Below the pieces are notes generated by a model that had not been told where the DNA came from, did no database searches, and worked only from the letters and a program-made list of their open reading frames with translations. Positions 4,245 through 63,660 of a DNA stretch of 64,000 nucleotides are shown piece after piece (position 1 is the first letter of the stretch; each line of letters starts with the position of its first letter). The translations under genes were made by a program, and so were the position numbers. Source of the stretch: Hypanus sabinus (lineage: Eukaryota); contig NC_082712.1 in assembly GCF_030144855.1 (NCBI RefSeq), positions 13,330,001-13,394,000 of the forward strand, read 5' to 3'.

Positions 4245-6930
4245 GTGCTAAGCACACACCCCTGAGGTGCACCAGTAGTGAATGTGAGCGAGGAGGATAT
4301 GTTGTCACCAACCCACGCTGATTGTGGTCTTCTGGTTAGAAAGTCGAGGATCTAATTGCAGAGGGAGGTACAGAGGCCCAGGTTCGGCAGCGTCTCAATC
4401 AGGAGTGTTGAAATGATGGTGTTAAATGCTGAGCTGTAGTTGATGAACAGCAAACTGACTTCGGTGTTTGTATTGTCCAAGTGGTCTAAGGCCGTATGAA
4501 GAGCCATTGAGATTGCATCTGCTGTTGACCTATTGTAGTGATAGGCAAATTGCAATGGGTCCAGTTCCTTGCTGAGGCAGGAGTTCAGTCGAGTCATGAC
4601 CAACCTCTCAATGCATTTCTTCACTGCTGATGTGAGTGCTACTGGGCAATAGTCATTAAGGCAGCTCACATTATTCTTCTTAGGCACCGGTATAATTGTT
4701 GCCTTTTTGAAGCAAGTGGGAACTTCCGCCTGTAGCAGTGAGAGTTTGAAAATGTCCTTGAATGCTCCCGACCTTCCGCCTTGCGAGGTTTCAACCTCTT
4801 TAAAGGTAGCCTAATACTGGTCTCCGAGTCAGAGGTCACAGGGTCATCCGGTGCAGCAGGGATCATCACAGCTGTCGTTGTGTTCTCCCTTTCAAAGTGG
4901 GCCTAGAAGGTGTTGAGTTCATCTGGTACTGAGGCATCGTGGCCATTCATGCTATTTGGGTTTCGCTTTGTAGGAAGTAATGTCTTGCATACCCTGCCAG
5001 AATTGCTGTGCATCCAATGTCACCTCCAACTTCATTCAAAATTGTCTCTTTGCCCTTAAAATAGCCCTCCGCGAGTCAGAACTGGTTTTGTTGGTACAGA
5101 TCTCTGTCTCCAGTCCAGAATGTCACAGATCCAGCCTTCAGCAAATGATGTACCTCCTGGTTCATCCACAGCGTTTGGTTTGCGAATGTAAAGCGAGTCT
5201 TTGCAGNNNNNNNNNNNNNNNNNNNNNNNNNNNNNNNNNNNNNNNNNNNNNNNNNNNNNNNNNNNNNNNNNNNNNNNNNNNNNNNNNNNNNNNNNNNNNN
5301 NNNNNNNNNNNNNNNNNNNNNNNNNNNNNNNNNNNNNNNNNNNNNNNNNNNNNNNNNNNNNNNNNNNNNNNNNNNNNNNNNNNNNNNNNNNNNNNNNNNN
5401 NNNNNNNNNNNNNNNNNNNNNNNNNNNNNNNNNNNNNNNNNNNNNNNNNNNNNNNNNNNNNNNNNNNNNNNNNNNNNNNNNNNNNNNNNNNNNNNNNNNN
5501 NNNNNNNNNNNNNNNNNNNNNNNNNNNNNNNNNNNNNNNNNNNNNNNNNNNNNNNNNNNNNNNNNNNNNNNNNNNNNNNNNNNNNNNNNNNNNNNNNNNN
5601 NNNNNNNNNNNNNNNNNNNNNNNNNNNNNNNNNNNNNNNNNNNNNNNNNNNNNNNNNNNNNNNNNNNNNNNNNNNNNNNNNNNNNNNNNNNNNNNNNNNN
5701 NNNNNNNNNNNNNNNNNNNNNNNNNNNNNNNNNNNNNNNNNNNNNNNNNNNNNNNNNNNNNNNNNNNNNNNNNNNNNNNNNNNNNNNNNNNNNNNNNNNN
5801 NNNNNNNNNNNNNNNNNNNNNNNNNNNNNNNNNNNNNNNNNNNNNNNNNNNNNNNNNNNNNNNNNNNNNNNNNNNNNNNNNNNNNNNNNNNNNNNNNNNN
5901 NNNNNNNNNNNNNNNNNNNNNNNNNNNNNNNNNNNNNNNNNNNNNNNNNNNNNNNNNNNNNNNNNNNNNNNNNNNNNNNNNNNNNNNNNNNNNNNNNNNN
6001 NNNNNNNNNNNNNNNNNNNNNNNNNNNNNNNNNNNNNNNNNNNNNNNNNNNNNNNNNNNNNNNNNNNNNNNNNNNNNNNNNNNNNNNNNNNNNNNNNNNN
6101 NNNNAATGGATACATACTCATCCAGATTCCAAGATGAATCCCTGAATACAGTCCAGTCCACTGATTCAAAGCAGTGCTACAAAAGCTTCTGTGCTTCCCT
6201 TGACCGTACCTTCTTGGTCCTCACTACTGGTGCAGCCGTCTTCAGCCTCTGCCTGTACTCAGGGAGTCGTAGTACAGCCAGGTGATCAGACTTCCTGAAG
6301 TGAGGGCATGGAATAACACTGTAACCATTCTTGATGGTGGTGTAACAATGGTCCAGTGTGTTGTTTCCTCTGGTATTGCAAGTGATCTGTTGATGGTTAT
6401 TGTTTAGTGTTTTTTTTAGACTGGCCTGGTTAAAATCCCCCAAAACGATGGTGAAGGTGTGCTGTTTAATGCATGTTAATCCCATGCCCAGATCATCTAA
6501 AGCCTGATTGACAATGGCCTGAGGTGGAATGTATACTGCTAACTAAATGACCCAGGAGAACTCCTGTGGTAACTAAAATGGACGACACTTAACCACTAGA
6601 TATTCCGGGTCTGGTGAGCAGAATTGGGACAGCACTGATATATTTGTGTACCAAGAGGAGTTCATCATGAGGCATACTCCTCCACCTCTGCTTTTGAGAC
6701 ACTCTACAGATCTATCCTGACAGTGTATAGTAAACCCATCAATCAGGATCGCTGCATCCAGTACGGAAAGGGTTAACCAGGATTCTGTGAAACAAAGGAC
6801 ACACACGATCCTAATGTCCCTCTGATTCAGTACCCTAACTCTGAGATCATCGATTTTATTCACCAGAGACTGCACGTTCACCAGCAAGATGGTCTGTATA
6901 GGGAGTTTCCTTTCTGCTGCCTTCCTCCTT
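4245..6930 (-). mobile_element. Rex1/Babar LINE (APE endonuclease plus RT, decayed, interrupted by assembly gap)
   Basis: ORFs 6573-6887 (NVQSLVNK...LCFTESWL), 6177-6485 (GDFNQA, TLDHCYT) and 4352-4687 ([29 protein letters not shown]). Confidence 0.85.
5207..6104. other. Assembly gap (898 N)
   Basis: Run of N characters. Confidence 1.
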
Positions 6931-12949: not shown

Positions 12950-13245
12950 GCTGGATTTGTTCTGATGGGAGATTGGAGGGACTGGGTGTGTTCTGAGTGG
13001 AGATCGCAGACACTATTTTTTCTGAGGAAAGATTGGTCGGACTGGGTCTGTTCTGATGGGAGATTAGAGAGTCTGGGTTTATTCTGAGGTGAGATCAGAG
13101 ATAATTTCTGTTTTTTATGGTAGATTAGAGAGATTGGATTTGTTCTGAGTGGAGATTAGAGAGACTGGCTTTGTTCTGAGGGGAGATTCAAGAGTCTGGC
13201 TTTGTTCTGATGAGTGGTTGGACAGACTGGGCTTGTCCTGAGGAA
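12950..13245 (-). repeat. Degenerate 30/31-bp minisatellite (same family as 17731-20076)
   Basis: About 9 diverged units of gactgggtttgttctgaggggagatt. Confidence 0.7.
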
Positions 13246-13389: not shown

Positions 13390-14250
13390 GTGAAGTGACA
13401 TTGGAGAATCAGGGTCTACTCTGCGGACTGTTACACAAAGCACCACTTGTAATGATGAGCAACTTCACAACTGAAAAGAATGTGGGTTCTCCAACGAACT
13501 ACGTATGTGCACCCTACTGGAATCCCTGACCCTCCATGAATAGTGAATGAAGAAGAAAGCGATTATCTGGGAAATGAGTCCACACTGGCTAGGTGTTCCT
13601 CATGGTCTCGATCTCCACATGTCCTCCTTATCCCTGATGGTTGTTCTCTGACTGCGGGAGAGTTATGGCTCCTACGTATTTGGAGCTCCTGAATTTTATA
13701 CTGTTCCTCATCAATTGAACTGGTGGATCTCCATCCCTTTGACTCAAGGTCACCTGACCTACCTGGGTCACCTTCTCATTGCTCATTATACAGGGCAACA
13801 ACCCACATTGTTTCCTGGTCCTGCCCACCCCAGACTTGTGTATTTGAGTCTTTCAACTCTGACTGGTCCAAACCCATTAAACTTGGTGACCCAGACAGAG
13901 TCTAACGAGAATACAGATTGATTCTTTGGTAGGTCTGGCATTTTACATAATAAGTAGCTCCTCCTCCGAGAATGGGCTCAGGTTTAGCAGGTCCTTCGGG
14001 TCCTGAAGTTTCTCATGTCCACTTTCAGTTGCTCTGATTAGATTATCCAAGAGCATGAATATAGTTCAGAATCCACAAAATGGGGGTGTGAGGGAACAAA
14101 GACAACTGGTCTGTCTCCTTCCCCTGAACTTGATTCATCAAATCCACTAATTGTAGACTGTAGATTCTTCTGGCCAACATCTTCCTCCTCTTCATCCAAA
14201 GATATTTATCCTGAGATCATTATCCTCCTCTCATTCAGATGACTGCCCAT
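13390..14250 (-). pseudogene. ERV post-env region, possible accessory ORF(s)
   Basis: It lies directly 3' of env on the proviral strand, matches no repeat I recognise, and has long open stretches (DEEEEDVG...; KMPDLPKNQSVFSLDSVWVTKFNGFGP...GCCP). Confidence 0.35.
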
Positions 14251-14369
14251 AGGACTGCCTTGTAGGTGTGTAACACTTACATTCTATAAATAATTTTAAC
14301 ATTTACTAACTAACTTCACCCACTTTATACTGACAATCGTCTCTGCTTTTTCATGAAAACCTTATCCTC

Positions 14370-16290
14370 CATTTTTTTTCCATTATTGCGTCTTCTCAGT
14401 TGATATACCTCAGGGGGCATAAAATTAGTACTGCAGCGGTATGTGATACTATTCTTACCCATGGATGTATTTGAACATTTGTCCTCCAATTCCAAAACTT
14501 ACTCCAAAAGCCTGGTGACTCAATATTTCATTTGCTTCTGCAGCGTGTGTTTTAATTACTTTAGTGTGTTTAGTCCATCGATGGATTATCTCCGTTTTCT
14601 CTGCCACAACACGTGTCCAGTCTGCAGTCAAGTGAGGAAGTGGTGGCAACTCAGTAACAACACAGTCCCACAGATATTGATCTGTATCTGTGCATCGAGT
14701 CTTGAAGTTCTCCCCCTGGCTGAGGCAAAGTTCATCCTCCAATGGCCAGGTCTAAAGTCACGTTCCCTCTCATGATATTGTGACTTTCCAAAAGGGCATT
14801 GTTTCCATCCCTTGGTATAACTTGTGGGCCCTGTTGCTATGTAATACGTCTGTCCCACCAATGCATATTGTAAGAAAGCCTAGTTATTCACAGGCAAAAT
14901 GGACAATGAATAATTTTCACAAGTACAGGTTTTAAGCTTCTGCTTTGTCATTCCTTCTGGACAAGATCAGTTGTCTCCCTCTTGATGGCATCTTGATAAA
15001 TCGCTCCCTTTCCCAGTACCATTCATAACAGTAGCATATATCAGTGGGTTACTTAAGGATATCTATGTATTCTGATGATACTTTCCAACATTGTGAACAT
15101 CTTTTCAAAATGTAGGTTGAATTATTTCCATATGGGGAAAATATGGAATACCACTCTGACATAAAAAAAACCTTCCTTTACCATCATCACGGGTATCGAG
15201 TTCTCTGTTGGTTACTGTAAGGCTTCTGATATGATACAATGGCACCCTTTCTCCAACCCATTCTTTCAGATGCTCATCTGAGACCCAGTTTGCTCCTTGA
15301 TGTGCATCAAGTTGCAACAGATTAGTGCCAGTCATGGTGAGCAACCAACTAGCATACGGAGCACGGATCTCAGTTTTCTGCATTTCCTTAGACGTGAGGT
15401 CTATGTGGTCAGTAATCGGATTTGTTGTATCATGAAGGGGCTACAGAAATTTACCAGTAACAGGGTTACCCGGATGCATCTCAACCAATCTGATTAGTTT
15501 GTACCCAATCTCTGTAATTCTCTCCAGTAATATCCCTTATTTTCTGCTGGAGGGACTGTGTCTGGTTTTCTAATTCTGCTACATCGAGGCTGTTGACTGT
15601 TGCTGCCCCTGATGCATAACCTACTCCCACTAATTCCAGTAGTCCTCTTTTCCTACTGACTTGACAGGCCTAACCTCGCTCTGCTTCGTTGTCTCTCACA
15701 AGGGTGAGCAAATAATTGTTTTGTTGTAGGTGAGCACTATTCAGGCACCATTATTTCAGTTAAATTAAAAATTATCTAGGAGTGCTCGTACCCTGGTGCC
15801 AAAGTGTCAAATTCCCTTGTATCTCCTAACACTAAGCCTGTCCCATTTGTGTTACGCTGGGTCTCACTACATTTAGGCTCTGGTATAGTTTCCATCACCT
15901 GTGGGTATGGAGTAGTGATTTTTCTAATAGTTTTGAAAACCTGGAAAGGGCCTGGCCACTGACAAAAACTGTAATATTTAAGGATAATATCCGCTCTTAC
16001 TTCCAGTTTAAATCTTAAATTATTTTGTGCATATTTTCTACTTGTTTTTCTAGACAAACCAGTCCAGACTCCCAGTTGTCTTTGGATTCAAGGCATCCAT
16101 TTTTCCTCACCCAATTTTGTTTTTAGATAGGAGAGACAAACACTGGCATATCTTCCTTTCCGTTTGATTTTTTTGACAAAATTCCCCTGTTTCTCAGGAT
16201 GTGGAAAATAAAAATCACCTCCTTGAGTGGGCAGGTTCCCATCTTCTTGGAACAGTTGCTCCATCCTCAAGTCCCCCAAATCAGGACTAC
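14370..16290 (-). pseudogene. env: ERV env, class I fusion protein resembling pneumo/paramyxovirus F (lokiretrovirus-like), with stops and frameshifts
   Basis: A hydrophobic LMYMVVLIWG leader; SRKR|GLLELVGVGYASGAATVNSLDVAELENQTQSLQQK at 15654-15541; Cys-rich GSDLSRCHQEGDN*SCP...TCTC; membrane-proximal HPWVRIVSHTAAVLIL. Confidence 0.75.
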
Positions 16291-16329
16291 CATGTACATC
16301 AATTGTTATGTCCTGATGGTGATAACATT

Positions 16330-16790
16330 CCTGTTTCTCCCCCACCAATTTCAGCTGGTTGATATGGTACCACCCACTTTTATCGTGAGAAGTCAGCACT
16401 GTGCACTAAAGGGTTTGCTTTGTCTATAATTTCATAGGGCCCTGCGAACCTTGGATTTAACAATGAGTGGGTTGGTGTTTCTAATCATCACTCATTGTCC
16501 TGGGTTTAATTCCATGGGACTGACTTTTGAGTCAAAGCCGAATTTACTCTGTTGCTTCTTCTTTCCTATTTGGTAGGCTGCCACATAACTGGCCTCTTTC
16601 ACTGCCTCTACTAATTGCTGTACCACTTTTCTGAAACAAACCCATTGATATCAAGTTCTGACAAATCTAATCCTAACAACTCCTCCTTTCATATCCCTTC
16701 CGGTCATGAATTTATACGGGATATAACCAGTTGAAGACACCACTGTATTCCTTATTGTCATCAAGGTACAAGGAAAATCTAATTCTAACT
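16330..16790 (-). pseudogene. pol: ERV integrase C-terminal part (HHCC and DDE core deleted)
   Basis: LMTIRNTVVSSTGYIPYKFMTGRDM (end of IN core), GPYEIIDK (GPY/F motif) and GWYHINQLK. Confidence 0.8.
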
Positions 16791-16914
16791 GCTCTAATCC
16801 TCTAATGTCCTTTCTGCTCAACCCTTGCGGAGTCCTCTGTTAAATCCATAACAATCTGTTTTCCCTTCTGCCTTCCAGACTCCCAACTTGTAGCTGCCAT
16901 TTCTGCCCAATTCA

Positions 16915-17090
16915 CAGTTGCACCTTGCTTCGCCAATTTATCAGCTTTTCTATTTCCCTCAGGAGATGATTTAGAGTGAGACTTCACCTTTATGACTCCA
17001 TATTATTTTCACTTTGCAACTCCAAATATATATTGTAATAAATCAGCAGATGGGAGGGGCCTGCATTAGCTGAAACAAACCCCCTGTTGT
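16915..17090 (-). pseudogene. pol: ERV RNase H C-terminus
   Basis: GFVSAN...PSADLLQYIF...VIKVKSHSKSSPEGNRKADKLAKQGA matches the retroviral RNase H K.H...GN..AD..AK motif. Confidence 0.8.
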
Positions 17091-17149
17091 GTTCACTTTC
17101 TGTTTCTCTTGTTTTCCATCTCAACCCCATTCTCCTCCCTTCTCCCCAC

Positions 17150-17460
17150 AACCTTTAACTCCTTGACTAAACAGGAACCTATGAAGTTCTGCTTTAAATA
17201 TGGTCAATGACTTGGCCTCCACAGCTGCCTGTGGAAATGAATTCCACAGATTCACCACTCCCTGGCTAAAGAAATTCCTCCTCATCTCTGTTCTAAATTG
17301 CCGTCCATCTATACTGAGGCTGTGCCCTCAGTTCCAAGACTTCCCCAAAATTGGAAACATTCTCTCCAGGTCTCTCAGTATTGTATGGGTTTCAGTGAGA
17401 TCCGCTGCAGCCCCCAACATTCTTCTAAACTTCAGTGAGTAGAAGACCAGAGTTATCAAA
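17150..17460 (-). mobile_element. CR1 3' fragment
   Basis: DLERMFPILGKS and ggaaatgaattccacagattcaccact, typical of a reverse CR1 3' end. Confidence 0.6.
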
Positions 17461-17730
17461 CACCATAGACAGCACCCTGTCTGGGTGCATCTCGGCTCGA
17501 TGTGGTCCATCTCTGTCTGTGACACAAGAAGCTATTTATTTTGATGAATGTGTGACAGATAAAGCCAACCTGTAACTTTATCTTGCACAAGTCACTGATA
17601 GTTCTGTGTTGTTTTTCCTACCGCAATGAAAGAGGAGATATTTCCAGCTACTTCCTCACTTACCACATCCCTAAAAGAAAAGTTCAGTCTTTTCAACTGT
17701 GAAATTATTTGGCATTATTTTTATCAACAC

Positions 17731-20076
17731 TCAGACCAAACACAGTCTGTCCGATCTCCCCTCAGACCAAACCCAGTCTGTCCGATCTCCCTCAGACCAA
17801 ACCCAGTCTGTCCAATCTCCCCTCAGATCAAACCCAGTCTGTCCGATCTCCCCTCAGACCAAACCCAGTCTGTCCGATCTCCCTCAGACCAAACCCAGTC
17901 TGTCCAATCTCCCCTCAGACCAAACCCAGTCTGTCCGATCTCCCCTCAGACCAAACCCAGTCTGTCCGATCTCCCCTCAGACCAAACCCAGTCTGACTGA
18001 TCTCCCCTCAGACCAAACCCAGTCTGTCCGATCTCCCTCAAACCAAACCCAATCTGTCTGATCTCCCCTCAGACCAAACCCAGTCTGTCCGATCTCCCTC
18101 AGACCAAACCCAGTCTGTCCGATCTCCCTCAGACCAAACCCAGTCTGTCCAATCTCCCCTCAGATCAAACCCAGTCTGTCCGATCTCCCCTCAGACCAAA
18201 CCCAGTCTGTCCGATCTCCCTCAGACCAAACCCAGTCTGTCCGATCTCCCCTCAGACCAAACCCAGTCTGTCCGATCTCCCCTCAGACCAAACCCAGTCT
18301 GTCCGATCTCCCTCAAACCAAACCCAATCTGTCTGATCTCCCCTCAGACCAAACCCAGTCTGTCCGATCTCCCTCAGACCAAACCCAGTCTGTCCGATCT
18401 CCCTCAGACCAAACCCAGTCTGTCCAATCTCCCCTCAGATCAAACCCAGTCTGTCCGATCTCCCCTCAGACCAAACCCAGTCTGTCCGATCTCCCTCAGA
18501 CCAAACCCAGTCTGTCCGATCTCCCCTCAGACCAAACCCAGTCTGTCCGATCTCCCCTCAGACCAAACCCAGTCTGTCCAATCTCCCCTCAGACCAAACC
18601 CAGTCTGTCCGATCTCACCTCAGATCAAACCCAGTCTGTCCGATCTCCCCTCAGACCAAACCCAGTCTGTCCGATCTCCTCAGACCAAACCCAATCTGTC
18701 CAATCTCCCCTCAGACCAAACCCAGTCTGTCCGATCTCCCCTCAGACCAAACCCAGTCTGTCCGATCTCCCCTCAGACCAAACCCAGTCTGACTGATCTC
18801 CCCTCAGACCAAACCCAGTCTGTCCGATCTCCCTCAAACCAAACCCAATCTGTCTGATCTCCCCTCAGACCAAACCCAGTCTGTCCGATCTCCCTCAGAC
18901 CAAACCCAGTCTGTCCGATCTCCCTCAGACCAAACCCAGTCTGTCCAATCTCCCCTCAGATCAAACCCAGTCTGTCCGATCTCCCCTCAGACCAAACCCA
19001 GTCTGTCCGATCTCCCTCAGACCAAACCCAGTCTGTCCGATCTCCCCTCAGACCAAACCCAGTCTGTCCGATCTCCCCTCAGACCAAACCCAGTCTGTCC
19101 AATCTCCCCTCAGACCAAACCCAGTCTGTCCGATCTCCCCTCAGACCAAACCCAGTCTGTCCGATCTCCCCTCAGACCAAACACAGTCTGACTGATCTCC
19201 CCTCAGACCAAACCCAGTCTGTCCGATCTCCCTCAAACCAAACCCAATCTGTAGGATCTCCCCTCAGACCAAACCCAGTTTGTCCGATCTCCCCTCAGAC
19301 CAAACCCAGTCTGTCCGATCTCCCCTCAGACCAAACCCAGTCTGTCCGATCTCCCCTCAGACCAAACCCAGTCTGTCCGATCTCCCCTCAGACCAAACCC
19401 AGTCTGTCCGATCTCCCCTCAGACCAAACCCAGTCTGTCTGATCTCCCCTCAGACCAAACACAGTCTGACTGATCTCCCCTCAGACCAAACCCAGTCTGT
19501 CCGATCTCCCTCAAACCAAACCCAATCTGTAGGATCTCCCCTCAGACCAAACCCAGTTTGTCCGATCTCCCCTCAGACCAAACCCAGTCTGTCCGATCTC
19601 CCCTCAGACCAAACCCAGTCTGTCCGATCTCCCCTCAGACCAAACACAGTCTGACTGATCTCCCCTCAGACCAAACCCAGTCTGTCCGATCTCCCTCAAA
19701 CCAAACCCAATCTGTAGGATCTCCCCTCAGACCAAACCCAGTTTGTCCGATCTCCCCTCAGACCAAACCCAGTCTGTCCGATCTCCCCTCAGACCAAACC
19801 CAGTCTGTCCGATCTCCCCTCAGACCAAACCCAGTCTGTCCGATCTCCCCTCAGACCAAACCCAGTCTGTCTGATCTCCTCTCAGATCAAACCCAGTCTG
19901 TTCGATCTCCCTCAGACCAAACCCAGTCTGTCCGATCTTCACTCAGAATAAACCCAGCCTTTGTGATCTCTCCACAGTCTCTCATCAGTACAAACTCACT
20001 CTCTGAAAGCACCTCAGTCACTCCAGAAAACAAAGCCAGTCTCTGTCTGATCTCTCCTCAGAGCAAACCCAGTCCC
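17731..20076 (+). repeat. 30/31-bp minisatellite, about 70 regular units plus degenerate 3' units
   Basis: Unit TCAGACCAAACCCAGTCTGTCCGATCTCCC(C), head-to-tail with no spacers. Confidence 0.97.
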
Positions 20077-21138
20077 AAGGGGGGAGGGCGGGATGTGAAT
20101 ATGGAGGTAGTGATTGGCATGATTTAGCAGATGAAGCTACTAGATATGGTTATGATAATTATAAAATACCATTTCCTGAGGAATTCCCACCGACTCCCTA
20201 CCATAGGGGGTCAGTGCTACTGTCTGCACGATTGGCACCCCTCATTACTCTCAGAGAGGAGGGAGCATGACAGCAAATCAAACTCAGACTGTAACATACA
20301 CCACACTGTTCGGTGTACAGCAACTTAAAGATATTGCTGAGGATATCAGGACAAGTGTGCTCAGAGACGATACTCAAGAGCTTTTCCAGGCAACTAGCCA
20401 TCAGAGAGAACTTCAAGGAAAGGAGATTGATTATAATGTGTCCATCCAAATATGCACTCGGCTTTGCCGAATCTACAGTGAGATGGTGGGGGACTGAAGA
20501 ACGCAATATTGACTGCTATGGGTGTTAACAGAGGGGACCCAGTCAACGCACTAAACACATTTTACCGGAGGAGAGGTGAACATCCCACTGCATTTGCAAC
20601 CCATTTATGGACTGTGTTCCAAGGAGTGTAGGAACAGCAGTAGAGTGTGGCCATTTAGACGGTTGTGGATACTGGCATCTCACTATACCGTTGAATCTAA
20701 AAAGGCACTGGAAATGTTTGATCCTTCTGAACCGACACATACTGAGGCACGGTCACTGAGGAAAATATGTAGAGCGAGGGAAAAGGAGATACAGAGACCA
20801 TCTAAACTCCCTAATGGGAAGGTAATGCCTGTTAAATTCAGGCACCTGAATGGAGAATTAATGGTAGGGGACACACCCCAAGGGCCTCCCTGCCACACCA
20901 TCAAGGGGCAAGGAAGGGCAGAGGAAATGGAACAGGGCCAGGAACAGGGAGAACTGAAGGTGGAGTAATTAAATGCTATAACTGTGGCCAAGAGGGACAG
21001 ATGAAGAGAGAATGTCCAAACCTGAGACAGGAAAGAGCAGAACAATGCAGTTTGTCTTTGGAGGGGCCAGAAAGATGGAGCCCACAGAATAACATGGTGG
21101 AGACACCATCCAGGGAATTGTACCCTGAGTCTGAGTGA
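20077..21138 (+). pseudogene. gag: ERV gag, inverted duplicate copy
   Basis: TVTYTTLFGVQQLKDIA...; KCYNCGQEGQMKREC zinc knuckle at 20974-21015 (His replaced by Gln); TGA at 21136-38. Confidence 0.75.
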
Positions 21139-21678
21139 TGGTGTCAGGCCTCACCAACATGGGTGTGACACAAGGTGGAATGAAACCAGAAGACCTTGAG
21201 TGATTGGTAGGGTCGGAGGCTGTCCTGTTACCTTTTTATGGGACACTGGATGATCCTGAACGACCGTCAACACCACTAATGTAAATAACGTAAATTGGGA
21301 GATTCAAGGTAGTGTTATTCTCATTGGATTGTCAGACATCCACAAGTGGGACGTGTGAGTGTGCCATTGGAATTAAGGATAGGAGACATAGCATCGAAAC
21401 ATTCAACAGTGCTGGTGGAATTACCCAGGGAGCAGGAACATATACTGGGGACTGATTACCTGGCCAAAGTGGGACTTTGTTTTGATCCAGTTAATTGTAT
21501 GATTCCCATAATTGTATTGCTCCATAATTCCCCATCTATATTTCACCAGCGCTTAGAGAAAGGTTTAAATGATTTTCAAATCCTGAGTGCTTGATACAGT
21601 ACATAGAAGATCTATTCCTGCAGATTGAAACTAAGCAGGAATATTATCAGCTATTGACAGAACTGCTGCAATTATTAG
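21139..21678 (+). pseudogene. pol: ERV protease plus deleted RT, inverted duplicate copy
   Basis: PVTFLWDTG (21239-50), HILGTDYL, then a jump to HNSPSIFHQRL and IQYIEDLF (YxDD decayed). Confidence 0.8.
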
Positions 21679-22130
21679 CAACACAAACAAAATGCTGGAG
21701 GAACTCAGCAGGCCAGGCAGCATCTTATGGGAAAGAGTACAGTCAACATTTCAGTCCAAAACCCTTCAGTGCGACTGGAGGGAAAAAGCTGAGGAGTAGA
21801 TTTAAAAGGTGGGGGGAGAGAGAAACACCGGGTGCAACCTGGAGGGGAAGGGATGAAGTAAAGAGCTGGGGAGTTGATTGGTGAAAGAGACAGTCTGCCA
21901 TGGAAGAAAGAAAAAGGGGAAGAAGCACCAAGGGGAGGCAATGGGTGGGAAAGGAGATATCATGAGAGAGGGAAAAGGGTTGGGAAATGTTGAAGGGGCG
22001 GAGGTGGGGGGTATTACTGAAACTTTGAGAAATCGATGTGCATGCCATCAGGTTGGAGGTGTTAAGGTGTTACTCTTTTCCATAGATACTAACTGGCCTG
22101 CTGACTTCCTCCAGCATTTTGTGTGTGTTC
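21679..22130. mobile_element. Penelope-derived segment with inverted termini at the centre of the large palindrome
   Basis: caacacaaacaaaatgctggaggaactcagcagg at the left end and its reverse complement cctgctgacttcctccagcattttgtgtgtgtt at the right end, with a purine-rich reverse Penelope 3' region between. Confidence 0.7.
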
Positions 22131-22250
22131 CTAATAATTGCAGCAGTTCTGTCAATAACTGATAAAGTTCCTGCTTAGTTCACTCTGCAGGAGTAGATCA
22201 CATATGTACTGAATCAAACACTCGGGTTTTGAAAACCGTTTAAACCTTTC
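22131..22250 (-). pseudogene. pol: ERV RT motif C region, main copy, left of hAT insertion
   Basis: The reverse complement aligns with 21550-21678 at roughly 88% by eye. Confidence 0.8.
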
Positions 22251-22258
22251 CCCTAAGC

Positions 22259-24932
22259 CAGGGGTCGGCAACCCGCGGCTCCAGACCCGCATGCGGCTCT
22301 TTCATCTCTGTGCTGCGGCTCCTTGTGGCTTTGGAAAATAAATGATGAGTATTTAATTAAAATGTATTTTATGTTAGTTTGTTAGTTTTTGAAATGTAAT
22401 TCTAAATTTGAAGATTATGGTGATCTTGTACAATCTAAATAAAACGTGTTTTTTGTCGCTATTAATATATGTCACCACTACCAATGCCTGACACCCGCCA
22501 GTGCGTGATTTCTTTAATTTTTCGATCCAAGTTAGGCGAACTATGGAGAATTCTAAAAGAAGAAAAGTGACTGAAGAAAACAGAACTTTTAATGATACGT
22601 GGGCAGATTCATTTGCTTTCACTGTTGACGAGACTGGTTTACCGGTATGCTTAATATGCAATGAGAAACTAGCAACCAGCAAAAAGTCAAAAGTCGCAAG
22701 ACATTTCCAGCAAACACGCAGGCTTTGCTCAAAAATATCCAGATGGAGATGAGAGAAAAAAAGCCGTTTCGGAAATGATGCGGAAGGTTGAGCTGAGCAA
22801 AAATCATTTCAAGAAGTGGATGAAGTCTGGAAAATCAACTACATATGCTAGTTTTGTTGCCGCTCAGGAAATAGTCAGGCACGGGAAGCAGTTTACAGAT
22901 GGTGAATATATAAAATAATCTTTCATTAAGATTTCAGAATATCTATTCACGGACTTTCAAAATAAAAGTGAAATTGTGCAGAAAATCAGGAATATGCCCC
23001 TCTTTGCAAAGACTGTCAAAGACAGAACCATAAAAATGGCAGAAGACATCACAAGACAGCAAATTAAAGACATCAATTCAGCTGTGGCCTACTCGATTGC
23101 CTGTGACGAGTCTAAAGACAAAGGTGATATTGAACAAATAGCGCTGTTCTGCTGGTATGTAAACTCTGCCTGGCCACAGGAAGAAATGATTGAGTTGATA
23201 CCTCTAAAAGGCCAAACACAGGGGGAGGACATCTATGAGGCTGTCTTGAATTGTTTAAGAGCCAAAGTACTAACGACCACCCACCTGGTGTCAGTAGCTA
23301 CTGATGGGGCACCAAGTATGACAGGAGCGTACAAGGGATTTGTGGCTTTACTGCAGAAGTCGCTGGGCAGAAAGCTGCTGACTTTTCACTGCATCTTGCA
23401 CCAAGAGGCTTTGTGCACTCAAACATTTCCTCCGGAATGCACAGGTAATGGATGTTGTCATTCAGATTGTCAATAAAATAATGGCAAAAAGTTTAAAACA
23501 CCGTCAATTCAGTTTGTTACTGGACGAGCTGGAAAGCGCATATCCAGATCTCCTGCTGCACAACAAAGTCCAGTGGCTGTCAAGAGGGGAGGTGCTGAAA
23601 CGATTTGTCGCGTGTCTGGAAGAAGTGAAAACTTTCCTGGGCAGCAAAGGGCTCACCTTTCCTGAGCTGGAACAGCCAGAGTGGCTGTAAAAGCTACACT
23701 TCATGGTAGACATGACAGCGCACCTGAACACGCTGAACACAGCTCTTCAGGGGAAAGGACGCACAGCCCTGCACATGTTGGAGGATGTTTTGGCATTTGA
23801 GCGCAAGTTGACAGTGCTTGCCAGAGATTTACAGAAAGGCACATTGTCTCACTTCCCCAATTTGAGAGAGTTCAAACAAGCTCACAACATGATAAATTCA
23901 GAGTATTGACATTCTGCAATCATCGCAATGCCGCATCATTTGGGAAATGCTTCTGTGAGTTCAGAGAAGGAAAAAACACATTATCCTTCCCGGTCACTCC
24001 CCTAAGCATCGATCCATCCCTACTGAATACGACTGCATTGGCAGGTGTGAGTCAACCTGATCTTGAGATGGAACTGGCCGACATAGCCGACAATGGGTGT
24101 CCAAGTTTAGACGCTTGACAGCAGACCTTGAAGATGTTGCCGGTCAGAAGGCCGTTCTTGCTCAGAATCATAAATGGAGTGATATTGAAAACCTCCCCAA
24201 TCCGGACAAACTTGTGTTGGAAACATGGAATGCTATCCCTGACATTTATGTAAACATTAAAAAGTATGCGCTTGGAGTCCTGTCGATCTTTGGATCCACA
24301 TATGTATGTGAGCAGGTGTTCTCCTACATGAACTTTATTAAAAACAAACATCGCGCACGCCTCACAGATGACAGCTTGCGATCCTGTGTAAAGATGAAGG
24401 TGACGTCATAAAGCCCTGATGTGCAGACGCTGTGCGCTGAGGTCCAGGAGCAGAGATCCCATTAACCAAGAATGATAAGTATTTTAATTGCCTATTATTT
24501 TATGTATATTCAATTTTTTTCATTTTTCAGTGAAATAGTACTTTTATTTTCAGGTTGACAGCTGGCTGACGCTATTTTTGGTTTGCTGCTGGCGGACAAT
24601 TTAAGTTTGGCGTTTTTCATAAATACAAGAAGGACTCAAATAGATTGAGTATTTTACTTAAAAGTAACCTTCAACCCAACGTCTTTTTTTCGGAGTTCAA
24701 AATGTTTTTGTTGCATGCAGAAATGTAATTTTGTTTTCTCTGCAGGAGTTCATCGATTACATAAATGCAACACATTATAGTTTGTTTATACATAGCATAA
24801 AGGCAAAAAAACCGTTGTATGCAGTGTTATGTCATTTTAAATGTCAAACGGGTTTTGTGGCTCCCAGTGTTTTCTTTTCTGTGGGAAACAGGTCCAAATG
24901 GCTCTTTCAGTGGTAAAGGTTGCCGGCCCCTG
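22259..24932 (+). mobile_element. Complete hAT DNA transposon (Charlie/Buster/SPIN-like)
   Basis: TIRs CAGGGGTCGGCAACC (22259-73) and GGTTGCCGGCCCCTG (24918-32); perfect 8-bp TSD CCCTAAGC at 22251-58 and 24933-40. Confidence 0.93.
22543..24411 (+). pseudogene. hAT transposase (GTF2IRD2/SPIN-like), frameshifted with stops
   Basis: PVCLIC (BED finger), IACDESKD, VATDGAPSM, CILHQEALC, FGSTYVCEQVFS and hATC end; split over several ORFs. Confidence 0.9.
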
Positions 24933-25915
24933 CCCTAAGCGCTGGTGAAATATAGATGGGGAATTATGGAACCCCTGTGGTAGGGTAGTCCACGTACACT
25001 GCTGTCTCTGAAGGGCAAGTGCAAACTTGACCATGACCAAAACCCATTATTTATGTTTAAAACTGAACCATTGTGCTCTTTCATTCTGTTTGAACATTGT
25101 TTCTGGGTTAGTTGCTACAGTTGGGGCTGTTAACCGAGTCACTTTATTTACCTCTCGATAATCAACCTCCAACTACCATCTGGTTCCCTCACGGGCAATA
25201 TGGGTGAGCTATTTGTGGAGGTTACTGGCCTCAGTACCCCTTGTTGCACCAAACTCTGTATTCCCTTGCCTACATCTTCCTCTGCTTTTTTGGAAACTCA
25301 TTTTAGTTCGGTGCTTTGGGGTCTGGACCTTGGATGCACACTCTGCCGGCCATCTTTCCACAGTCATGCTTGTGTCTTGCAAATGCCCCCGAGTTCTGTG
25401 CAATAATTTACTGCACCATCTGATCATTGCTCATCTCCCCCGGTTTTATCCACATTTCGTCCATTGTGCAGATTCTATCCAATATTCTCCTGTATATTCT
25501 CCAGGATCTGTATGTGGTGTATGTTATTCATGACAGTTAGCATCTGCCAAATCATACAATTAACTGGATCAAAGCAAAGCCCCACTTTGGCCAAGTAATC
25601 AGTCCCCAGTATGTGTTCCTGCTCCCTGGGTAATTCCACCAGCACTGTTGAATGTTTCGATGCTATGTCTCCTATCCTTAATTCCAAAGTCACACTCACA
25701 CGTCCCACTGGTGGATGTCCGAGAATCCAATGAGGATAACTCTACCTTGTATCTCCCAATTTACGTTATTTACATTAGTGGTGTTGACGGTGGTTCGGGA
25801 TCCTCCAGTGTCCCATAAAAAGGTAACAGGGTGGCCTCCAACCCTACCAATCACTGGAGGTCTTCCGGTTTCATCCCACCTTGTCTCACACCCATGTTGG
25901 TGAGGCCTGACACCA
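24933..25915 (-). pseudogene. pol: ERV protease and RT, main copy
   Basis: VTFLWDTGGSRTT (WDTG at 25804-15), HILGTDYL, a frameshifted QQGVLRPVTSTNSSPILPV..PDGSWRL, and TWTTLPQGFHNSPSIFHQRL. Confidence 0.82.
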
Positions 25916-28560
25916 TCATTCAGGCTCAGGGTACAATTCCCTGGATGGTGCTGTCTCTACCATGTTATTTTGTGGGCTCCATCTTTCTGGCCCCTCCAAG
26001 TGCAAACTGCATTGCTCTGCTCTTTCTCATCTCAGGTTTGGACACTCTCTCTCCCACAGTTTCAGAGAGACAGACAGACAGACATACTTTATTGATCCCG
26101 AGGAAAATTGGGTTTCGTTACAGTCACACCAACCAAGAACAGTGAAGAAATATAGCAATATAAAACCATAAATAATGAAATAAAAATAAGTTAATTATGC
26201 CAAGTGGAAATAAGTCCAGCACCAGCCTATTGGCTCAGGGTGTCTGACACTCTGAGAGAGGAGGTGTAAAGTTTGATGGCCACAGGCAGGAATGACTTCC
26301 TATGACGCTCAGTGTTACATCTCGGTGGAATGAGTCTCTAGCTGAATGTACTCCTGTGCCTAACCAGTACATTATGGAGTGGATGGGAGTCATTGTCCAA
26401 GATGGCATGCAACTTGGATAGCATCCTCTTTTCAGACACTACCGTCAGAGAGTCCAGTTCCACCCCCACAACATCACTGGCCTTACGAATGAGTTTGTTG
26501 ATTCTGTTGGTGTCTTCTACCCACAGTCTGCTCTCTCAGCATACAACAGCAAACATGATAGCACTGGCCACCACAGACTCGTAGAACATCCTCAGCATCG
26601 TCCAGCAGATGTTAAAGGACCTCAGTCTCCTCAGGAAATAGAGACGGCTCTGACACTTCTTGTAGACAGTCTTAGTGTTCTTTGACCAGTCCTGTTTATT
26701 GTCCATTCGTATCCCCAGGTATTTGTAATCCTCCACTATGTCCACACTGTCCCCTTGAATGGAAACAGGGGTCACCGGTGCCTTAGCCCTCCTCAGGTCC
26801 ACCACCAGCTCCCTAGTCTTTTTCACATTAAGCTACAGATTATTCTGCTCACACCACATGACAAAGTTTCCCACTGTCGCCCTGTACTCAGCCTCATCTC
26901 CCTTGCTGAATCATCCAACTATGGCAGAGTCATCAGAAAACTTCTGAAGATGGCAAGACTCTGTGTTGTAGTTGAAGTCCAAGGTGTAGATGGTGAAGAG
27001 AAAGGGAGACAGGACAGTCCCTTGTGGAGCCCCAGTGCTGCTGACCACTCTGTCTGACACACAGTGTTGCAAGTACTGTGGTCTGCCAGTCAGGTAATCA
27101 ATAATCCATGACACCAGGGAAGCATCCACTTGCATCACTGTCAGCTTCTCACCCAGCAGAGCAGGGCGGATGGTGTTGAACAAACTGGAGAAGTCAAAAA
27201 ACATGACCCTCACAGTGCTCGCCGGCTTGTCCAGGTGGACGTAGACATGGTTCAGCACGTAGATGATGGCATCCTCAACTCCTAGTCGGAGCTGAGAGGC
27301 GAACTGGAGGGGGTCTAAGTAGGCCGGAGCTGCTCTGGAACAAGTCTCTCCATGATGTGGGAGGTCAATGCCACCGGTCTATAGTCATTGGAGCCACTGG
27401 GGTGCGGCATCTTCGGTACAGGAACTAGGCAGGACATCTTCCTCTGGAGACTCAGGCTCAGGTTGAAGACATGGTGAAGTACTCCACATAGCTGGGGGCA
27501 CAGGCTTTGAGAACCCTGGGGCTGAAACCATGCGGGCCTGCAGCCTTGCTTGGATGGAGACGATTCAGCTGTCTTCTCACCTGTTCAGCTGTGAAGCCCA
27601 CCATGGTGCTTTCAGGTGAGGGAGGGGTATAGTCATTAGAGCAGGGTGGGGGGCTGTGAGGAGGGGTAGGAGGGGTATAGCATTTGAATATTCCACCTTC
27701 AGTTCTCCCTGTTCCATTTCCAATGCCTTTCCTTGCCCCTTGATAGGGTGGCAGGGAAGCCTTCGAGGTGTGTCCCCCACCCTCATTTCTCTAGACAGGT
27801 GCCCGACTTTTAACAAGCATCACCTTCCCATTAGGGAGTTCAGATGGTCTCTGTATCTCCTTTTCCCTCGCTCTACACATTTTCCTCAGTGACTGTGCCT
27901 CAGTATGTGTGGGTTCAGAAGGATCAAACATTTCCAGTGCCTTTTTAGATTCAACGGTATATTGAGACGCCAGTATCCACAACCATCTAAATGGCCGCAC
28001 TCTACTGCTGTTCCTACACTCCTTGGAACACAGTCCATAAATGGGAAGCAAATGCAGTGGGATGTTCCCCTCTTCTCCGGTAAAATCTGTCCAGTGCGTT
28101 GACTGGGTCCCCTCTGTTAACACCCTTAGCAGTCAATATTGCGTTCTTCTGTTCCCCACCATCTCACTGTAGATCCGGCAAAGCCGAGTGCATATTTGGA
28201 TGGGACACATTATAATCAATCTCCTTTCCTTGAAGTTCTCTCTGATGGCTAATTGCTTAGAAAAGATCTTGAGTATCGTCTCTGAGCACACGTGTCCTGA
28301 TATCCTCAGCAATATCTTTAAGTTGCTGTACACTGAACAGTGTGGTGTATGTTACAGTCTGAGTTTGATTTGCTGTCCTGCTCCCTCCTCTCTGATAGTA
28401 ACGAGGGGTGCCAATCGTGCAGACAGTAGCACCGGCTCCCGTTGGGAGGGTGTCGGTGGGAGTTCCTTGGGAAATGTTGTTTTGTAATTATCGTAACTGT
28501 ACCCAGTAGCTTCTCCAGCTAAATCATGCCAATCACTATGTCCATATTCATGTTCCCCCC
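25916..28560 (-). pseudogene. gag: ERV gag, main copy, split by a Rex1 insertion in the zinc knuckle
   Basis: ORFs 27791-28123 and 28133-28487 mirror the gag ORFs at 20198-20968; TGA at 25916-18. Confidence 0.75.
26066..27675 (-). mobile_element. Rex1/Babar LINE, 5'-truncated, inserted in gag
   Basis: VRVMFFDFSSLFNTI, GAPQGTVLSPFLF, LQKFSDD, KTRELVVDLR, YKYLG; (GTCT)n tail near 26070. Confidence 0.88.
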
Positions 28561-28564
28561 GTTG

Positions 28565-28915
28565 GGACTGGGTTTGCTCTGAGGTGAGATCAGAGGGAGA
28601 CTGGCTTTGTTTTCTGGAGTGACTGAGGTGTGATCGGAGAGTTAGGTTGTACTGATGAGAGACTGTGGAGAGATCACAGAGACTGGGTTTGTTCTGAATG
28701 AAGATCGGACAGACTGGGTTTGGTCTGAGGAGAGATCGGACAGACTGTGTTTGGTCTGAGGGGAGATCAGACAGACTGGGTTTGGTCTGAGGGAGATCGG
28801 ACAGATAGGGTTTGGTCTGAGGGGAGATCAGACGGACTGGGTTTGGTCTGAGGGAGATCGGACAGACTGGGGTTGGTCTGAGGGAGATCGGACAGACTGG
28901 GTTTGGTCTGAGGGG
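28565..28915 (-). repeat. 30/31-bp minisatellite, short copy (about 7 regular units plus degenerate units)
   Basis: Units of gactgggtttggtctgagg(g)gagatcggaca. Confidence 0.9.
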
Positions 28916-29334
28916 AGATAATGATAATGACCAATTCGTTTCACAGCTGAAAAGACTGAACTTGCCTTTTGGGGATGTGGTAAATGAGGAAGTAGCTGGA
29001 AATATCTCCTCTTTTATAGTGGTAGGAAGAACAACACAGAACTATCAGTGACTTGGGCAGGATTATGCTACAGATTCGCTTTAACTGTCAGATATTCATC
29101 GAAATAAAGAGTTTCTTGTGTCACAGACAGAGATATACCACATCGAGCCGAGATGCACCCAGACAGGGTGCTGTCTATGGTGTTTGATAACTCTGGCCTT
29201 GTACTCACTGCAGTTTAGAAGAACGTTGGTGGGGTGCAGGGAATCTCATTGAAACCTATGCAATACTGAGAGGCTTGGATAGATTTGACATGGAGAGGGT
29301 GTTTCTGATTGTGGGGAATTCTTGATGATTGAGC

Positions 29335-58655: not shown

Positions 58656-59039
58656 ACTATTCGATATATGGTTGGTCAATTTCCGGCGCTGATGTGGTCT
58701 CGGCAGTGGAAGGAGCCTCCGCCGTGTTACCGTGTACTTTCACCCACCCACCTCCTGATGTCGCCCTGAACGGCTCCGTGATCTGGTACAAGACCGAACC
58801 AGGTGCTACAAAACCGGTGTTTAAGTGCACACATCCCGGTTCCGGCCCCTCCGGGTGCGATACAACGACACAGGAGGCTGGAGGAGGGCGGTTCCGATTC
58901 GTGGGGAACCTCAGTCGGAGAGATGCCTCGATAATGGTGGATCGACTGAACCGGAGTGACGGTGGTCGGTATCGGTGCCGGGTGGAGCTCAATGTTGACA
59001 GCTTTCAAACGGTGGTTCTAACAAATCTGTCTGTGAGAG
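58656..59039 (+). CDS. SIGLEC15: Intact Ig V-set exon, sialic acid-binding Ig-like lectin 15-like (paralog or ortholog not resolved)
   Basis: 384-nt phase 1-1 exon (cccag| ... G|gtgagg) with no stops. It encodes VLPCTFTHP, IW..EP, VFKC...GC, GRFR..GN and YRCRVE, matching my recollection of SIGLEC15 including the essential Arg after the F-strand Cys and the extra Cys pair. Confidence 0.85.
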
Positions 59040-60180
59040 GTGAGGACCGATGTTTAAGCATTGAGTTGTAAATCTACACTAATCATTTCACATTTCATCT
59101 CACTGAAAGCTCATTTTATTCATAATGTACAAGTATATTTTGCAGGACGATCATGTCAAATAGATGTGATTGTCATGTGCACTAGCACATAGAACAACAG
59201 CACTGTACAGGCCCTTCAGCCCACAATGTTGTGCTGACCCTTAAACCTGCTCCAAGATCAATTTCTCCCCCTTGCCTCCCACATGCCCTCCATTTTTACA
59301 TCATCCGTGTCTCTAAGAGTCTCTCTCCCTCTCCCCTCCCTCTCCCCCCCCCCCCCACTCTCCGCCCTCCCCCTCTTCCCCTCCCCCTCCCTCTCCCCTC
59401 CCTCTCCCCCTCCCTCTCCCCTCCCTCTCTCTCCCTCCCCCTCTCTCCCCGGTCCGTGACGCTGCTGCCATTTCAGTCAGCAATGAAGGGCCTCCATCTC
59501 TGGCAGCATTCGGGGCTTCCTTCATCGTGTCAGTAGCTTCCTCTCGGTTTTCACTGCTGTCAGTCATACAATTCCCGAGTGGGACTCAGGAATACCGTCA
59601 CACTCAGATGTCGAAGGATTCTCCATTGCAGTTTCCATAACAACATTGTTTTACCCGTCAGGGTTGTTACCCTGAGCTGAACCCCCGAACCTGGAGGATC
59701 AGTGATCCTCTCTTACAGAGAATATAGAAACAGAAATCTACAGCACATTACAGGCCATTCGGCCCACAATGCTGTACTGACCATGTAACCTACTCTAGAG
59801 AGATTACCTCTTTCTTTTTCAATCTTTTTATTAGTTTTTATAAAAAAACATAATATTATATTAAATAGGTTATGAATACAATAGATTTGAAATTAAATTA
59901 GTAACAAGATAAAAATATCTTATTAAACTATCAGCGAAAAAAGATCGTACAATAATCAATCTAATCTACATTGATTATACATGAAAAAGATTAAAAATAA
60001 TCATCAAAAGAAAAAAAAGTATAAAATACAAGAAAAAATGTATATTTAAGAAAATAATGAAAAAAAACTAAACTAACATGGGCAGTAATAATAGTTTATA
60101 TGTATATGATAGTGTCAAAAAACTCCGGAACTCCATACCAGAACAAGAATAATAAGAATAAAGGTCCGGAAGAAGCCAAA

Positions 60181-60987
60181 TTAATTCATATGAAAGTGTC
60201 GAATGAATGGTCCCCAAGTTTCTTCAAATTTAATTGATGAATCAAAAATAGTACTTCTAATTTTCTCTAAACTTAAACAAGAAATAGTTTGAGAGAACCA
60301 CTGAAATGTGGTAGGAGGATTTATTTCTTTCCAATTTTGTAATATAGATCTCCTGGCCATTAATGTTACAAAGGCAATCATTCGTCTAATTGAAGGGGAG
60401 AATCGACTATCATCTTCATTTGGTATACCAAAAATTGCAGTGATAAAATGAGGTTGTAAATCAATATTCCAAATTGAGGAAATGGTAGCAAATATGTCCT
60501 TCCAATAATTATGTAAAGTAGGACATGACCAAAACATGTGGGTCAATGAAGCCACATCTAAATGACATCTGTCACATTGAGGGTTAACATGAGAATAAAA
60601 CCGAGCAAGCTTATCTTTAGACATATGAGCTCTATGTACAACCTTAAATTGTATTAAAGCATGTTTAGCACATATAGAAGAAGAATTAACCATTTGTAAA
60701 ATTTTTTCCCATTTTTCCGTTGAAATATTGTATTGAAGTTCTTTTTCCCATTCCTGTTTAATTCTACCCGATACCTCTGGTTGTATTTTCATAATCATAT
60801 TATAAATAAGAGCCACTAATCTCTTCTGACAGGGATTTAAAGTAAAAATCATATCTGAAAAATCTATCAAAGCTGAATTAGGAAAGGATGGTAAAACTTT
60901 ATGCAAAAAGTTTCTAATTTGTAAATATCTAAAAAAATTAGATTTAGGTAATTTAAATTTGTTAGAAAGTTGATCAAAAGACATCAA
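60181..60987 (-). CDS. L1 ORF2 C-terminal domain (separated by about two frameshifts near 61000-61150)
   Basis: CDRC...HMFWSC zinc-knuckle motif and WGPF end. Confidence 0.88.
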   Translation of the reverse strand: MMSFDQLSNKFKLPKSNFFRYLQIRNFLHKVLPSFPNSALIDFSDMIFTLNPCQKRLVALIYNMIMKIQPEVSGRIKQEWEKELQYNISTEKWEKILQMVNSSSICAKHALIQFKVVHRAHMSKDKLARFYSHVNPQCDRCHLDVASLTHMFWSCPTLHNYWKDIFATISSIWNIDLQPHFITAIFGIPNEDDSRFSPSIRRMIAFVTLMARRSILQNWKEINPPTTFQWFSQTISCLSLEKIRSTIFDSSIKFEETWGPFIRHFHMN

Positions 60988-61111
60988 ACTACCTTCAGAA
61001 AAAAGATCACGAAAACATATTATACCTTTCCTTTTCCATATGCTAAAAGCTTGATCTATTAAAGAAGGTTTAAAGAAAAAATTAAGATAGGGCTATCAAG
61101 AACGAAGTTTT

Positions 61112-63013: not shown

Positions 63014-63142
63014 TAAAGCTATATCTAAATATCTTTGTTTTCTTTTCCCAGCAGAATATGAGATAATTTGTCCATGAATAAAAGCCTTAAAAGAGTCCCA
63101 AAGTATTCCTCTGTCAATCTCTTCGGTATAGTTTGTTGAAAA

Positions 63143-63660
63143 AGAGAGATTACCTCAGGGCTCTTGAACTCAATCCCACAGCTGACGAATGCCAGTACAC
63201 CAGACACCTTCTTAACACCACTGTCAACCTGTGCAGCAGCTTTGAGTGTCCTATGGACAGAGTCCCCAAGATCCAGCTCATCCTCCACACTGCCACCAGT
63301 CTTACCATTCATATATTCTGTATTCAAATTTGACCTACCAGAATGAATCACTTCACACTTATCTGGGTTGAACTCCATCTGTTCTACACACCCTCCACTC
63401 TGTGTGTAATGAACCTGCCTCTGACCTCTGACATCCCCCCAATACTTTCCAGGAAAAGTCTCTGGCTGTCTGCTCGATTATGCCTCTTATCATCTTGTTC
63501 ACCTCTATCAAGTCACCTCTCATCTTTCTTCACTCCCAAGAGAAATTCTCCAGCTCGCTCAACCTTTCCTCATTAAACATCCTCTCTGGTCCAGGCAGCA
63601 TCCTGGTAGATCTCCTCTACATCCTCACGAAAGCTTCCTCATCCTTCCTGTAATGAGGTG
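63143..63660 (-). mobile_element. CR1 3' fragment (target of the L1; remainder at about 59720-59810)
   Basis: MEFNPDKCEVIH, LKAAAQVDS, GIEFKS. Confidence 0.75.

Follow-up and report, generated by a model that had tools for sequence, protein, structure and literature searches.

Which retroviral lineage left the decayed provirus carried on the minus strand of C25:13330001-13394000? This stretch, hereafter the window, comprises 64,000 nucleotides of a genome of 4.04 Gb in 2989 contigs, and the initial annotation had read in it a lokiretrovirus (Loki), or a sister lineage of Loki, in a cartilaginous fish. In our analysis the element is probably a dead, rearranged and old endogenous retrovirus (ERV) of a cartilaginous fish, with a reverse transcriptase (RT) of canonical non-foamy type that likely falls in or next to the group of snakehead retrovirus (SnRV), and with an envelope protein (Env) that likely resembles the F protein of paramyxoviruses.

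Placement of the family by its reverse transcriptase

Pfam matches in the window alone were weak (E 0.001-0.06). Eighteen dispersed regions of the same ERV family were compared with the window copy, which shares 79-82% DNA identity with the dispersed copies in the protease-RT region. One dispersed copy matched RVT_1 (E 1e-28), the tether (6e-21), RNase_H (3e-7), H2C2 (5e-13), rve (4e-13) and zf-CCHC (3e-7), the last of which bears out the CCHC knuckle previously claimed for Gag. As query we used the single-frame RT of dispersed copy L043, with its two stops read as X. When the 150 best representatives were joined to the matches, 167 rows with 150 or more amino acids were obtained from 208 proteins, among them rows that Pfam labelled as foamy, gamma/epsilon and ERV-L. 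The Loki clade was anchored by eye through P0157, which matches the published text of Loki-Lro and whose clade shares the motif RCPFG, among others, with Loki-Lch. The reading of a coelacanth and frog clade in the first FastTree as Loki was overturned by the published Loki sequences.

A subset of 85 rows covering each FastTree clade was then analyzed by a more careful method. The resulting tree separated Ty3/gypsy elements (support 100/99), Loki (100/99) and canonical retroviruses (100/94), the latter with a foamy pair (98/90) and a non-foamy group (97/94), thus reproducing the topology of Wang & Han (PMC7947760), and our copies were found on the canonical side. They also lay inside the canonical retroviruses (97/93) in a 56-row tree obtained by the careful method. 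Approximately unbiased (AU) tests, performed on a 39-row quick tree with groups named after the first tree had been seen, rejected a grouping of our copies with Loki (p=0.0025) as well as one with foamy viruses (p=0.031, in a panel without the foamy-like ERVs (FLERVs) CmiFLERV and XtrFLERV). Ty3/gypsy elements were apart in RT, and the RNase H of our family is dual, not single. As judged from its sequence, the RT is that of a canonical non-foamy retrovirus, outside both Loki and the foamy viruses, and membership in Loki is refuted on the character that defines that clade.

The best RT matches in the database were Pols of frogs and coelacanth annotated as 'NYNRIN-like', with 52-53% identity; the members compared (P0001 from Rhinophrynus, P0062 from Aquarana/Lithobates, P0063 from Xenopus and P0002 from Latimeria) ranged from 51 to 53%. 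Together with an unnamed protein, P0004, they have the same domain order, fall in the same RT group and gave the best tether, RNase H and integrase (IN) scores. Frog members are intact and present in multiple copies, whereas the family studied here is dead. In ranid frogs (P0062 cluster), many intact Pols of about 1218 amino acids, annotated 'protein NYNRIN-like', belong to the same RT group and form a young family. Of the 80 loci retained from a metagenome scan for this group, none was above 36% identity and none had a matching Env.

Among 12 viral retrovirus records SnRV was the nearest (RT identity 44%, E 5e-65), followed by a record at 33-35%. The record taken as SnRV has 10,688 nucleotides and an RT identical to panel row P0071; published SnRV, also of 10,688 nucleotides, counts as an unclassified orthoretrovirus and has a clade of ERVs (PMC12193657). 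In the 85-row tree our copies, the frog and coelacanth ERVs and SnRV formed a group with support 86/88, the 16 rows without SnRV had 92/94, and in another RT tree SnRV joined our group at 91 SH. Both SnRV and our family carry LPQG in RT, a Gag with a coiled-coil region and one knuckle, and gag and pol in one frame. On this basis, filing the element within the SnRV-like (clade Huo, class III) grade is moderately supported by sequence comparison.

SnRV-like ERVs were already known in cartilaginous fish, since lineage I CmiERV of the elephant shark clusters with SnRV (Han, 2015, PMC4422223). Members of clade Huo, which is SnRV-related, have been found throughout the major vertebrate groups (Xu et al., 2018, PMC6001957), and most chondrichthyan ERV RTs are of clade III (PMC11089739). 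The novelty in host range that had been expected of the locus is therefore lost, both because Loki membership is gone and because of the elephant shark ERVs.

The envelope protein

In dispersed copies, the surface subunit of Env measures about 300 amino acids or more. The basic sequence KNRRKR precedes GLLELVGAGYASGVATV, and the protein further has a heptad-repeat helix, a beta-rich part that closes with IDLSRC...WSCP and a membrane anchor. By eye, this last but one part is like that of Loki Env (LKSVLNVG...PNLxxC...IHWxCP) and of SnRV (VDLSKC...IYCN). With SnRV Env our family also shares a long surface subunit, a basic cleavage site followed by GL-x-E-L, and a long fusion subunit. A 363-amino acid Env fragment was collinear with SnRV Env for about 260 residues spanning the cleavage site, with a score of 81 (shuffle mean 53, z about 4) that was reached by 1 of 500 shuffles, while three other retroviral Envs gave no signal with our Env in the shuffle test. 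The fusion subunit of SnRV itself was assigned in Atlas to the Baculo_F and Fusion_gly clusters, with values of 0.91-0.95.

A number of results speak against this resemblance. The alignment to SnRV Env was clear in one of three Env fragments only (z 4.1, 2.6 and -0.3), hhalign returned E values of 0.15 and 0.01 and a profile search between the two Envs 0 bits, and the recognition value behind the Atlas assignment of SnRV Env was low (1527 vs 2300). The Env frames of our family, all of them broken fragments, had no Pfam match to PF00523 or any other F family, and PDB profile searches with Env alignments produced coiled-coil noise only. SnRV Env did not match PF00523 either, word-based homologue searches with our Env and SnRV Env gave no matches, and AlphaFold2 models of two Env fragments reached mean pLDDT values of 36 and 41; Foldseek found nothing at E<=0.001 for the second model, which is of low confidence and evidence neither way.

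Taken together, the sequence comparisons suggest that Env is likely a paramyxovirus-F-like fusion protein, and likely is as far as we go, because all direct Pfam, PDB and fold tests were blank. The earlier description of an Env similar to the F proteins of Mononegavirales is supported indirectly, by way of the likeness to SnRV and Loki, with no direct match to PF00523, to PDB entries or to a known fold. An F-like Env is by itself no proof of a lokiretrovirus, and in addition to Loki and the foamy viruses a third branch of retroviruses seems to use a fusion protein of F type. It is possible, although we lean slightly away from it, that the SnRV-like grade basal to the orthoretroviruses, the ray family included, has an F-type (class Ib) Env homologous to those of Loki and foamy viruses, and that this was the ancestral retroviral Env. 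If so, the gamma/beta-type Env of other orthoretroviruses would be a later replacement, as in scenario 3 of Wang & Han (PMC7947760). That idea conflicts with the published split, which puts all orthoretrovirus Envs in class Ia: foamy Env is F-like by cryo-EM and orthoretrovirus Env belongs to another subclass (Fernandez et al., 2024, PMC11468914; neither Loki nor snakehead is mentioned there). We found no paper that calls SnRV Env F-like, subscription journals being outside the search. Confirmation of a third branch with F-type Env would bear on the open question of the origin of retroviral Env, and it can be sought by experiment because SnRV is an intact, cultured virus.

Alternative placements

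Several results weigh against the reading of a canonical, SnRV-like element. The RT trees were built on dispersed copies, to which the window copy is tied by the DNA identity given above, and their panel held one certain foamy virus, no alpha-, beta-, delta- or lentivirus and no identified Odin element. In the 56-row tree SnRV fell in a polytomy, its grouping appearing in 16% of 200 bootstrap trees. IN scored 118-124 bits against Loki and 60 against SnRV, the tether 65-79 and 34, respectively, and Gag was not significantly similar to SnRV Gag (z 0.3-0.4). The IN and tether scores would suit a separate basal canonical lineage, made up of the 'NYNRIN-like' ERVs of frogs, coelacanth and ray without SnRV proper and endowed with a Loki-like IN and an F-like Env, and so would the groups recovered without SnRV, both that of 16 rows given above and one of 12 rows in the 56-row tree (80/93). 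The primer fits as well, being tRNA-Asn in our family and an Arg tRNA in SnRV, and the stretch of about 150-190 bp between env and the LTR leaves no room for a 3' accessory open reading frame (ORF) of SnRV type, a trait that the ERV clade may not share as a whole. We nevertheless regard such a lineage as unlikely: SnRV joins our group in three RT trees; it is long-branched, and low scores are therefore to be expected; and the breadth of clade Huo across all major vertebrate groups (PMC6001957) indicates that the lineage is probably already inside it.

In favour of a lokiretrovirus or Loki sister lineage in cartilaginous fish, as first proposed, are the mixture of WDTG and LPQG motifs, the dual RNase H, the order of the F-like Env motifs, which align by eye with those of Loki, and the IN scores. 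Lokiretroviruses form an RT clade sister to the canonical retroviruses, and further traits of theirs are an Env with similarity to PF00523, an IN near CGIN1/NYNRIN and, in some members, an smc-like gene (Wang & Han, 2021, PMC7947760); the relatives of our family are annotated as NYNRIN-like. Dual RNase H is not diagnostic of Loki, because it is common to all retroviruses. Besides the AU rejection, RT reads RCPFG in Loki-Lch and LPQG in our element (LPQG had no match in the available part of the Loki supplement, PMC7947760), a quick RNase H tree of 133 columns, which is a weak test, joined Loki and foamy viruses at 86 with our copies elsewhere, and the N-terminal Env subunit has about 120 amino acids in Loki Envs vs at least about 300 here, all of which makes the proposal extremely unlikely. 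A recombinant that combined a canonical RT with an env, and perhaps an IN, from a lokiretrovirus would explain why IN and Env resemble Loki, and replacement of RNase H and IN domains is documented (PMC7947760). It is very unlikely as well, given an Env layout (long surface subunit, GL-x-E-L fusion peptide) nearer to SnRV than to Loki, and a quick IN tree, with mammalian NYNRIN outside its panel, that placed our copies without resolution. Loki was found in none of six chondrichthyan genomes (Wang & Han Fig. S1, PMC7947760), which likewise speaks against a recombinant and agrees with the host range given in the initial annotation. Finally, that the element is foamy-like and kin to the FLERVs of chimaera and Xenopus appears scarcely credible, although foamy RTs were the best PDB matches to our RT (E 9e-40), the fusion machinery would be of F type in both, a newt FLERV uses the tRNA-Asn primer too, and XtrFLERV clusters with CmiFLERV (PMC5512871) while Xenopus Pols fall in our group. 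RT lies outside the foamy pair, as the AU test also found; the protease is of ordinary retropepsin type, with no Pfam match to Spuma_A9PTase in the window or in a dispersed copy; and a CCHC knuckle is present. To our knowledge, foamy Gag lacks that knuckle.

The family in the genome and the history of the window copy

Copy numbers of the SnRV-like family are lower bounds, since 40 of 691 first-look candidates were scored in the env search and 40 of 2055 in the LTR search. At least 58 env matches were obtained, 16 of them at 95-100% identity (14 on C25, the window included, and two on C2488) and 42 elsewhere at 75-89%. The family has two long terminal repeats (LTRs) of about 0.75-0.8 kb with TG...CA ends, a polypurine tract before the 3' LTR and a primer site after the 5' LTR, which matched host tRNA-Asn within four edits in four of eight element-sense stretches. 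The decayed provirus of the initial annotation is supported, and the 0.9 kb it had left unexplained after env consists of a short 3' untranslated region, the polypurine tract and the 3' LTR (14179-13429), the same sequence recurring upstream of gag in several dispersed copies. A search of the host genome for intact copies with LTRs and a primer site, as had been suggested, returned LTR pairs and the tRNA-Asn site but none intact: no long open frame was present in any copy examined, and the longest Env stretches had 363 amino acids (one stop) and 351 (three stops).

The divergence of paired LTRs (Kimura two-parameter) was 0.205 and 0.207 for two long pairs and 0.16 and 0.21 for two short ones. 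Both long pairs were flanked, tentatively and by eye, by a 4-bp target duplication with one mismatch. Paired LTRs about 20% apart in dispersed copies mark the family as old and dead. Its age would be about 47 My at the mammalian rate of Wang & Han (PMC7947760) and ten times greater at the shark rate assumed by Han (PMC4422223), so that we put it at tens of millions of years or older. Gag and protease were in one frame at 6 of 10 junctions, four of these from one local cluster, and in two dispersed copies a coiled-coil-like frame 5' of gag was read as the Gag N-terminus. In contigs from four public runs of four organisms, one of which may be the source of the assembly, the 3' half was covered in 30 of 30 bins at 85% or more, with a best exact-word share of 0.27; among the public sequencing runs, no RNA run was listed as carrying the family. 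At C27:111.32-111.37 Mb a local cluster holds at least four partly inverted copies, about 94% alike, and a Ty3/gypsy-type element adjoins one dispersed copy (L034:3200-8200).

The family presumably replicated as an ordinary retrovirus, with Pol probably translated as a continuation of the gag frame, as in SnRV, and would have entered cells through a furin-cleaved Env whose long surface subunit was joined to a fusion peptide, a heptad repeat, a beta-rich domain and an anchor. Its entry into the germ line may date back tens of millions of years or more, with decay thereafter. The window copy would then have lost its 5' end, been partly duplicated in inverted orientation and received LINE and hAT insertions, before passive amplification of a host segment of about 100 kb, with an immunoglobulin (Ig) V-set gene, to some 14 copies with the provirus aboard. 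The locus itself is an ordinary dead ERV amplified passively with a host gene cluster.

Six-frame reading and Pfam confirmed the minus-strand order gag, protease, RT, RNase H, IN and env (Table 1), and with it the WDTG protease, the RNase H and IN C-terminal parts and env. Two spans required correction. The gag assigned to 28560-25916, confirmed at 28560-27676, includes a 1.6-kb long interspersed nuclear element (LINE; ~27675-26060) that splits the knuckle, and the RT assigned to 25500-22131 contains LPQGFHNSP and the RT middle but also a 2.67-kb hAT transposon, flanked by an 8-bp target duplication, GCTTAGGG, at 24933-24940 and 22251-22258. The initial annotation had also missed an inverted duplicate, 85-92% identical to 29283-25550 and 22258-22071, and the knuckle that Pfam scored in the window (E 7e-4) belongs to this second, plus-strand gag copy.

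Table 1. Features of the window copy and adjoining sequence (positions in the window; strand "." where unassigned).
Feature	Position	Strand	Remarks
3' LTR	13429..14179	-	751 bp, TGTT...AACA; termini aligned
Polypurine tract	14180..14192	-	AAGAGGAGGAAGA; adjoins LTR
env	14330..16290	-	Frameshifted; ~0.57 kb internal deletion in surface subunit; 5' limit uncertain
env membrane-anchor region	from 14470	-	
env DLSRC	15002-14988	-	DLSRCHQEG 15002-14976; six-frame reading
env fusion-peptide-like GLLELVG	15645-15625	-	Six-frame reading
Integrase C-terminal part	16340..16780	-	GPYEI 16442-16428; zinc finger and catalytic core deleted
RNase H C-terminal part	16900..17090	-	Pfam RNase_H E 0.0013; NRKADKLAK 16954-16928
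LINE 3' fragment	17110..17360	-	Presumably CR1-like; between inverted block and RNase H; repeat also at other window sites
Inverted duplicate	17361..21690	+	Host flank, minisatellite, gag, protease, part of RT
31-bp minisatellite in inverted duplicate	17730-19957		72.5 copies
Motifs of inverted duplicate		+	Gag knuckle 20974-21015; WDTG 21239-21249; RT middle 21597-21614
SINE-like (short interspersed) spacer	21690..22125	.	Junction of two opposed RT fragments
RT middle fragment, minus-strand copy	22125..22258	-	Window self-comparison and six-frame reading
hAT DNA transposon, inside RT	22259..24932	+	Pfam Dimer_Tnp_hAT, zf-C2H2_12, DUF4371
gag C-terminus, protease, RT N-terminal half	24941..26052	-	WDTG 25815-25805; LPQGFHNSP 24983-24957
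LINE (non-LTR retrotransposon) inside Gag zinc knuckle	26060..27675	-	Pfam RVT_1 2e-15, ALKBH8_N 3e-11
gag capsid region, 5'-truncated	27676..28560	-	71-77% identity to dispersed-copy gag
Host 31-bp minisatellite	28680..28919	.	Adjoins truncated 5' end of gag

Several parts present in dispersed copies are missing from the window copy, namely the 5' LTR, the primer site, the Gag N-terminus, the tether, the IN core and a stretch of env of about 0.57 kb; neither a 5' LTR nor a primer site was present upstream of its gag, and no second LTR match was found within the window. A diverged array of the 31-bp minisatellite unit lies past the 3' LTR (12951-13243). We rejected a reading of the two terminal 31-bp arrays as LTRs, because they are absent from dispersed copies and variable in copy number among paralogues; the inner array has between about 16 and 86 copies.

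The 14 C25 env matches at 95-100% lie between 11.58 and 13.45 Mb at a spacing of about 100 kb, on the plus strand up to 12.69 Mb and on the minus strand from 13.05 Mb, and this region is a large inverted segmental-duplication array. Eight of 10 neighbouring C25 paralogues had the full nested architecture, one had another rearrangement and one stretch missed most of the element. An architecture common to eight of them argues that the copies arose from segmental duplication and not from viral activity. The paralogue at C25:12.67-12.69 Mb has neither the LINE nor the hAT insertion and carries an extra inverted RNase H-IN-env block, and may represent a stage through which the locus passed earlier. 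An Ig V-set exon at window position 58760-59050 (plus strand; Pfam V-set E 7e-8), which we take to be Siglec-like, probably belongs to a host gene whose unit of about 100 kb repeats along C25 11.6-13.45 Mb with the provirus carried along.

The cartilaginous fish host named by the initial annotation was confirmed. A large acetylcholinesterase exon of the host scored 935 bits against 2W6C, 1ACJ, 1EA5 and 1EVE, 780 against 4QWW and 675-682 against the next group, entries that we take to be from Torpedo, a snake, and mouse or human, respectively. These scores place the host in Chondrichthyes and, as far as sequence comparison indicates, probably among the rays. Host RAG1 was found in one frame of 1045 amino acids. 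Look-ups of exact matches to RAG1 and to seven mitochondrial proteins returned none, so that the host is placed at the level of class. The assembly also includes a mitochondrial contig of 17.8 kb (C2152), with cytochrome b copies on nuclear contigs as well. In the window itself, positions 5207-6104 are 898 N, and fairly intact fragments of an AT-rich LINE ORF2, 680 and 303 amino acids long, lie on the minus strand at 60181-63154.

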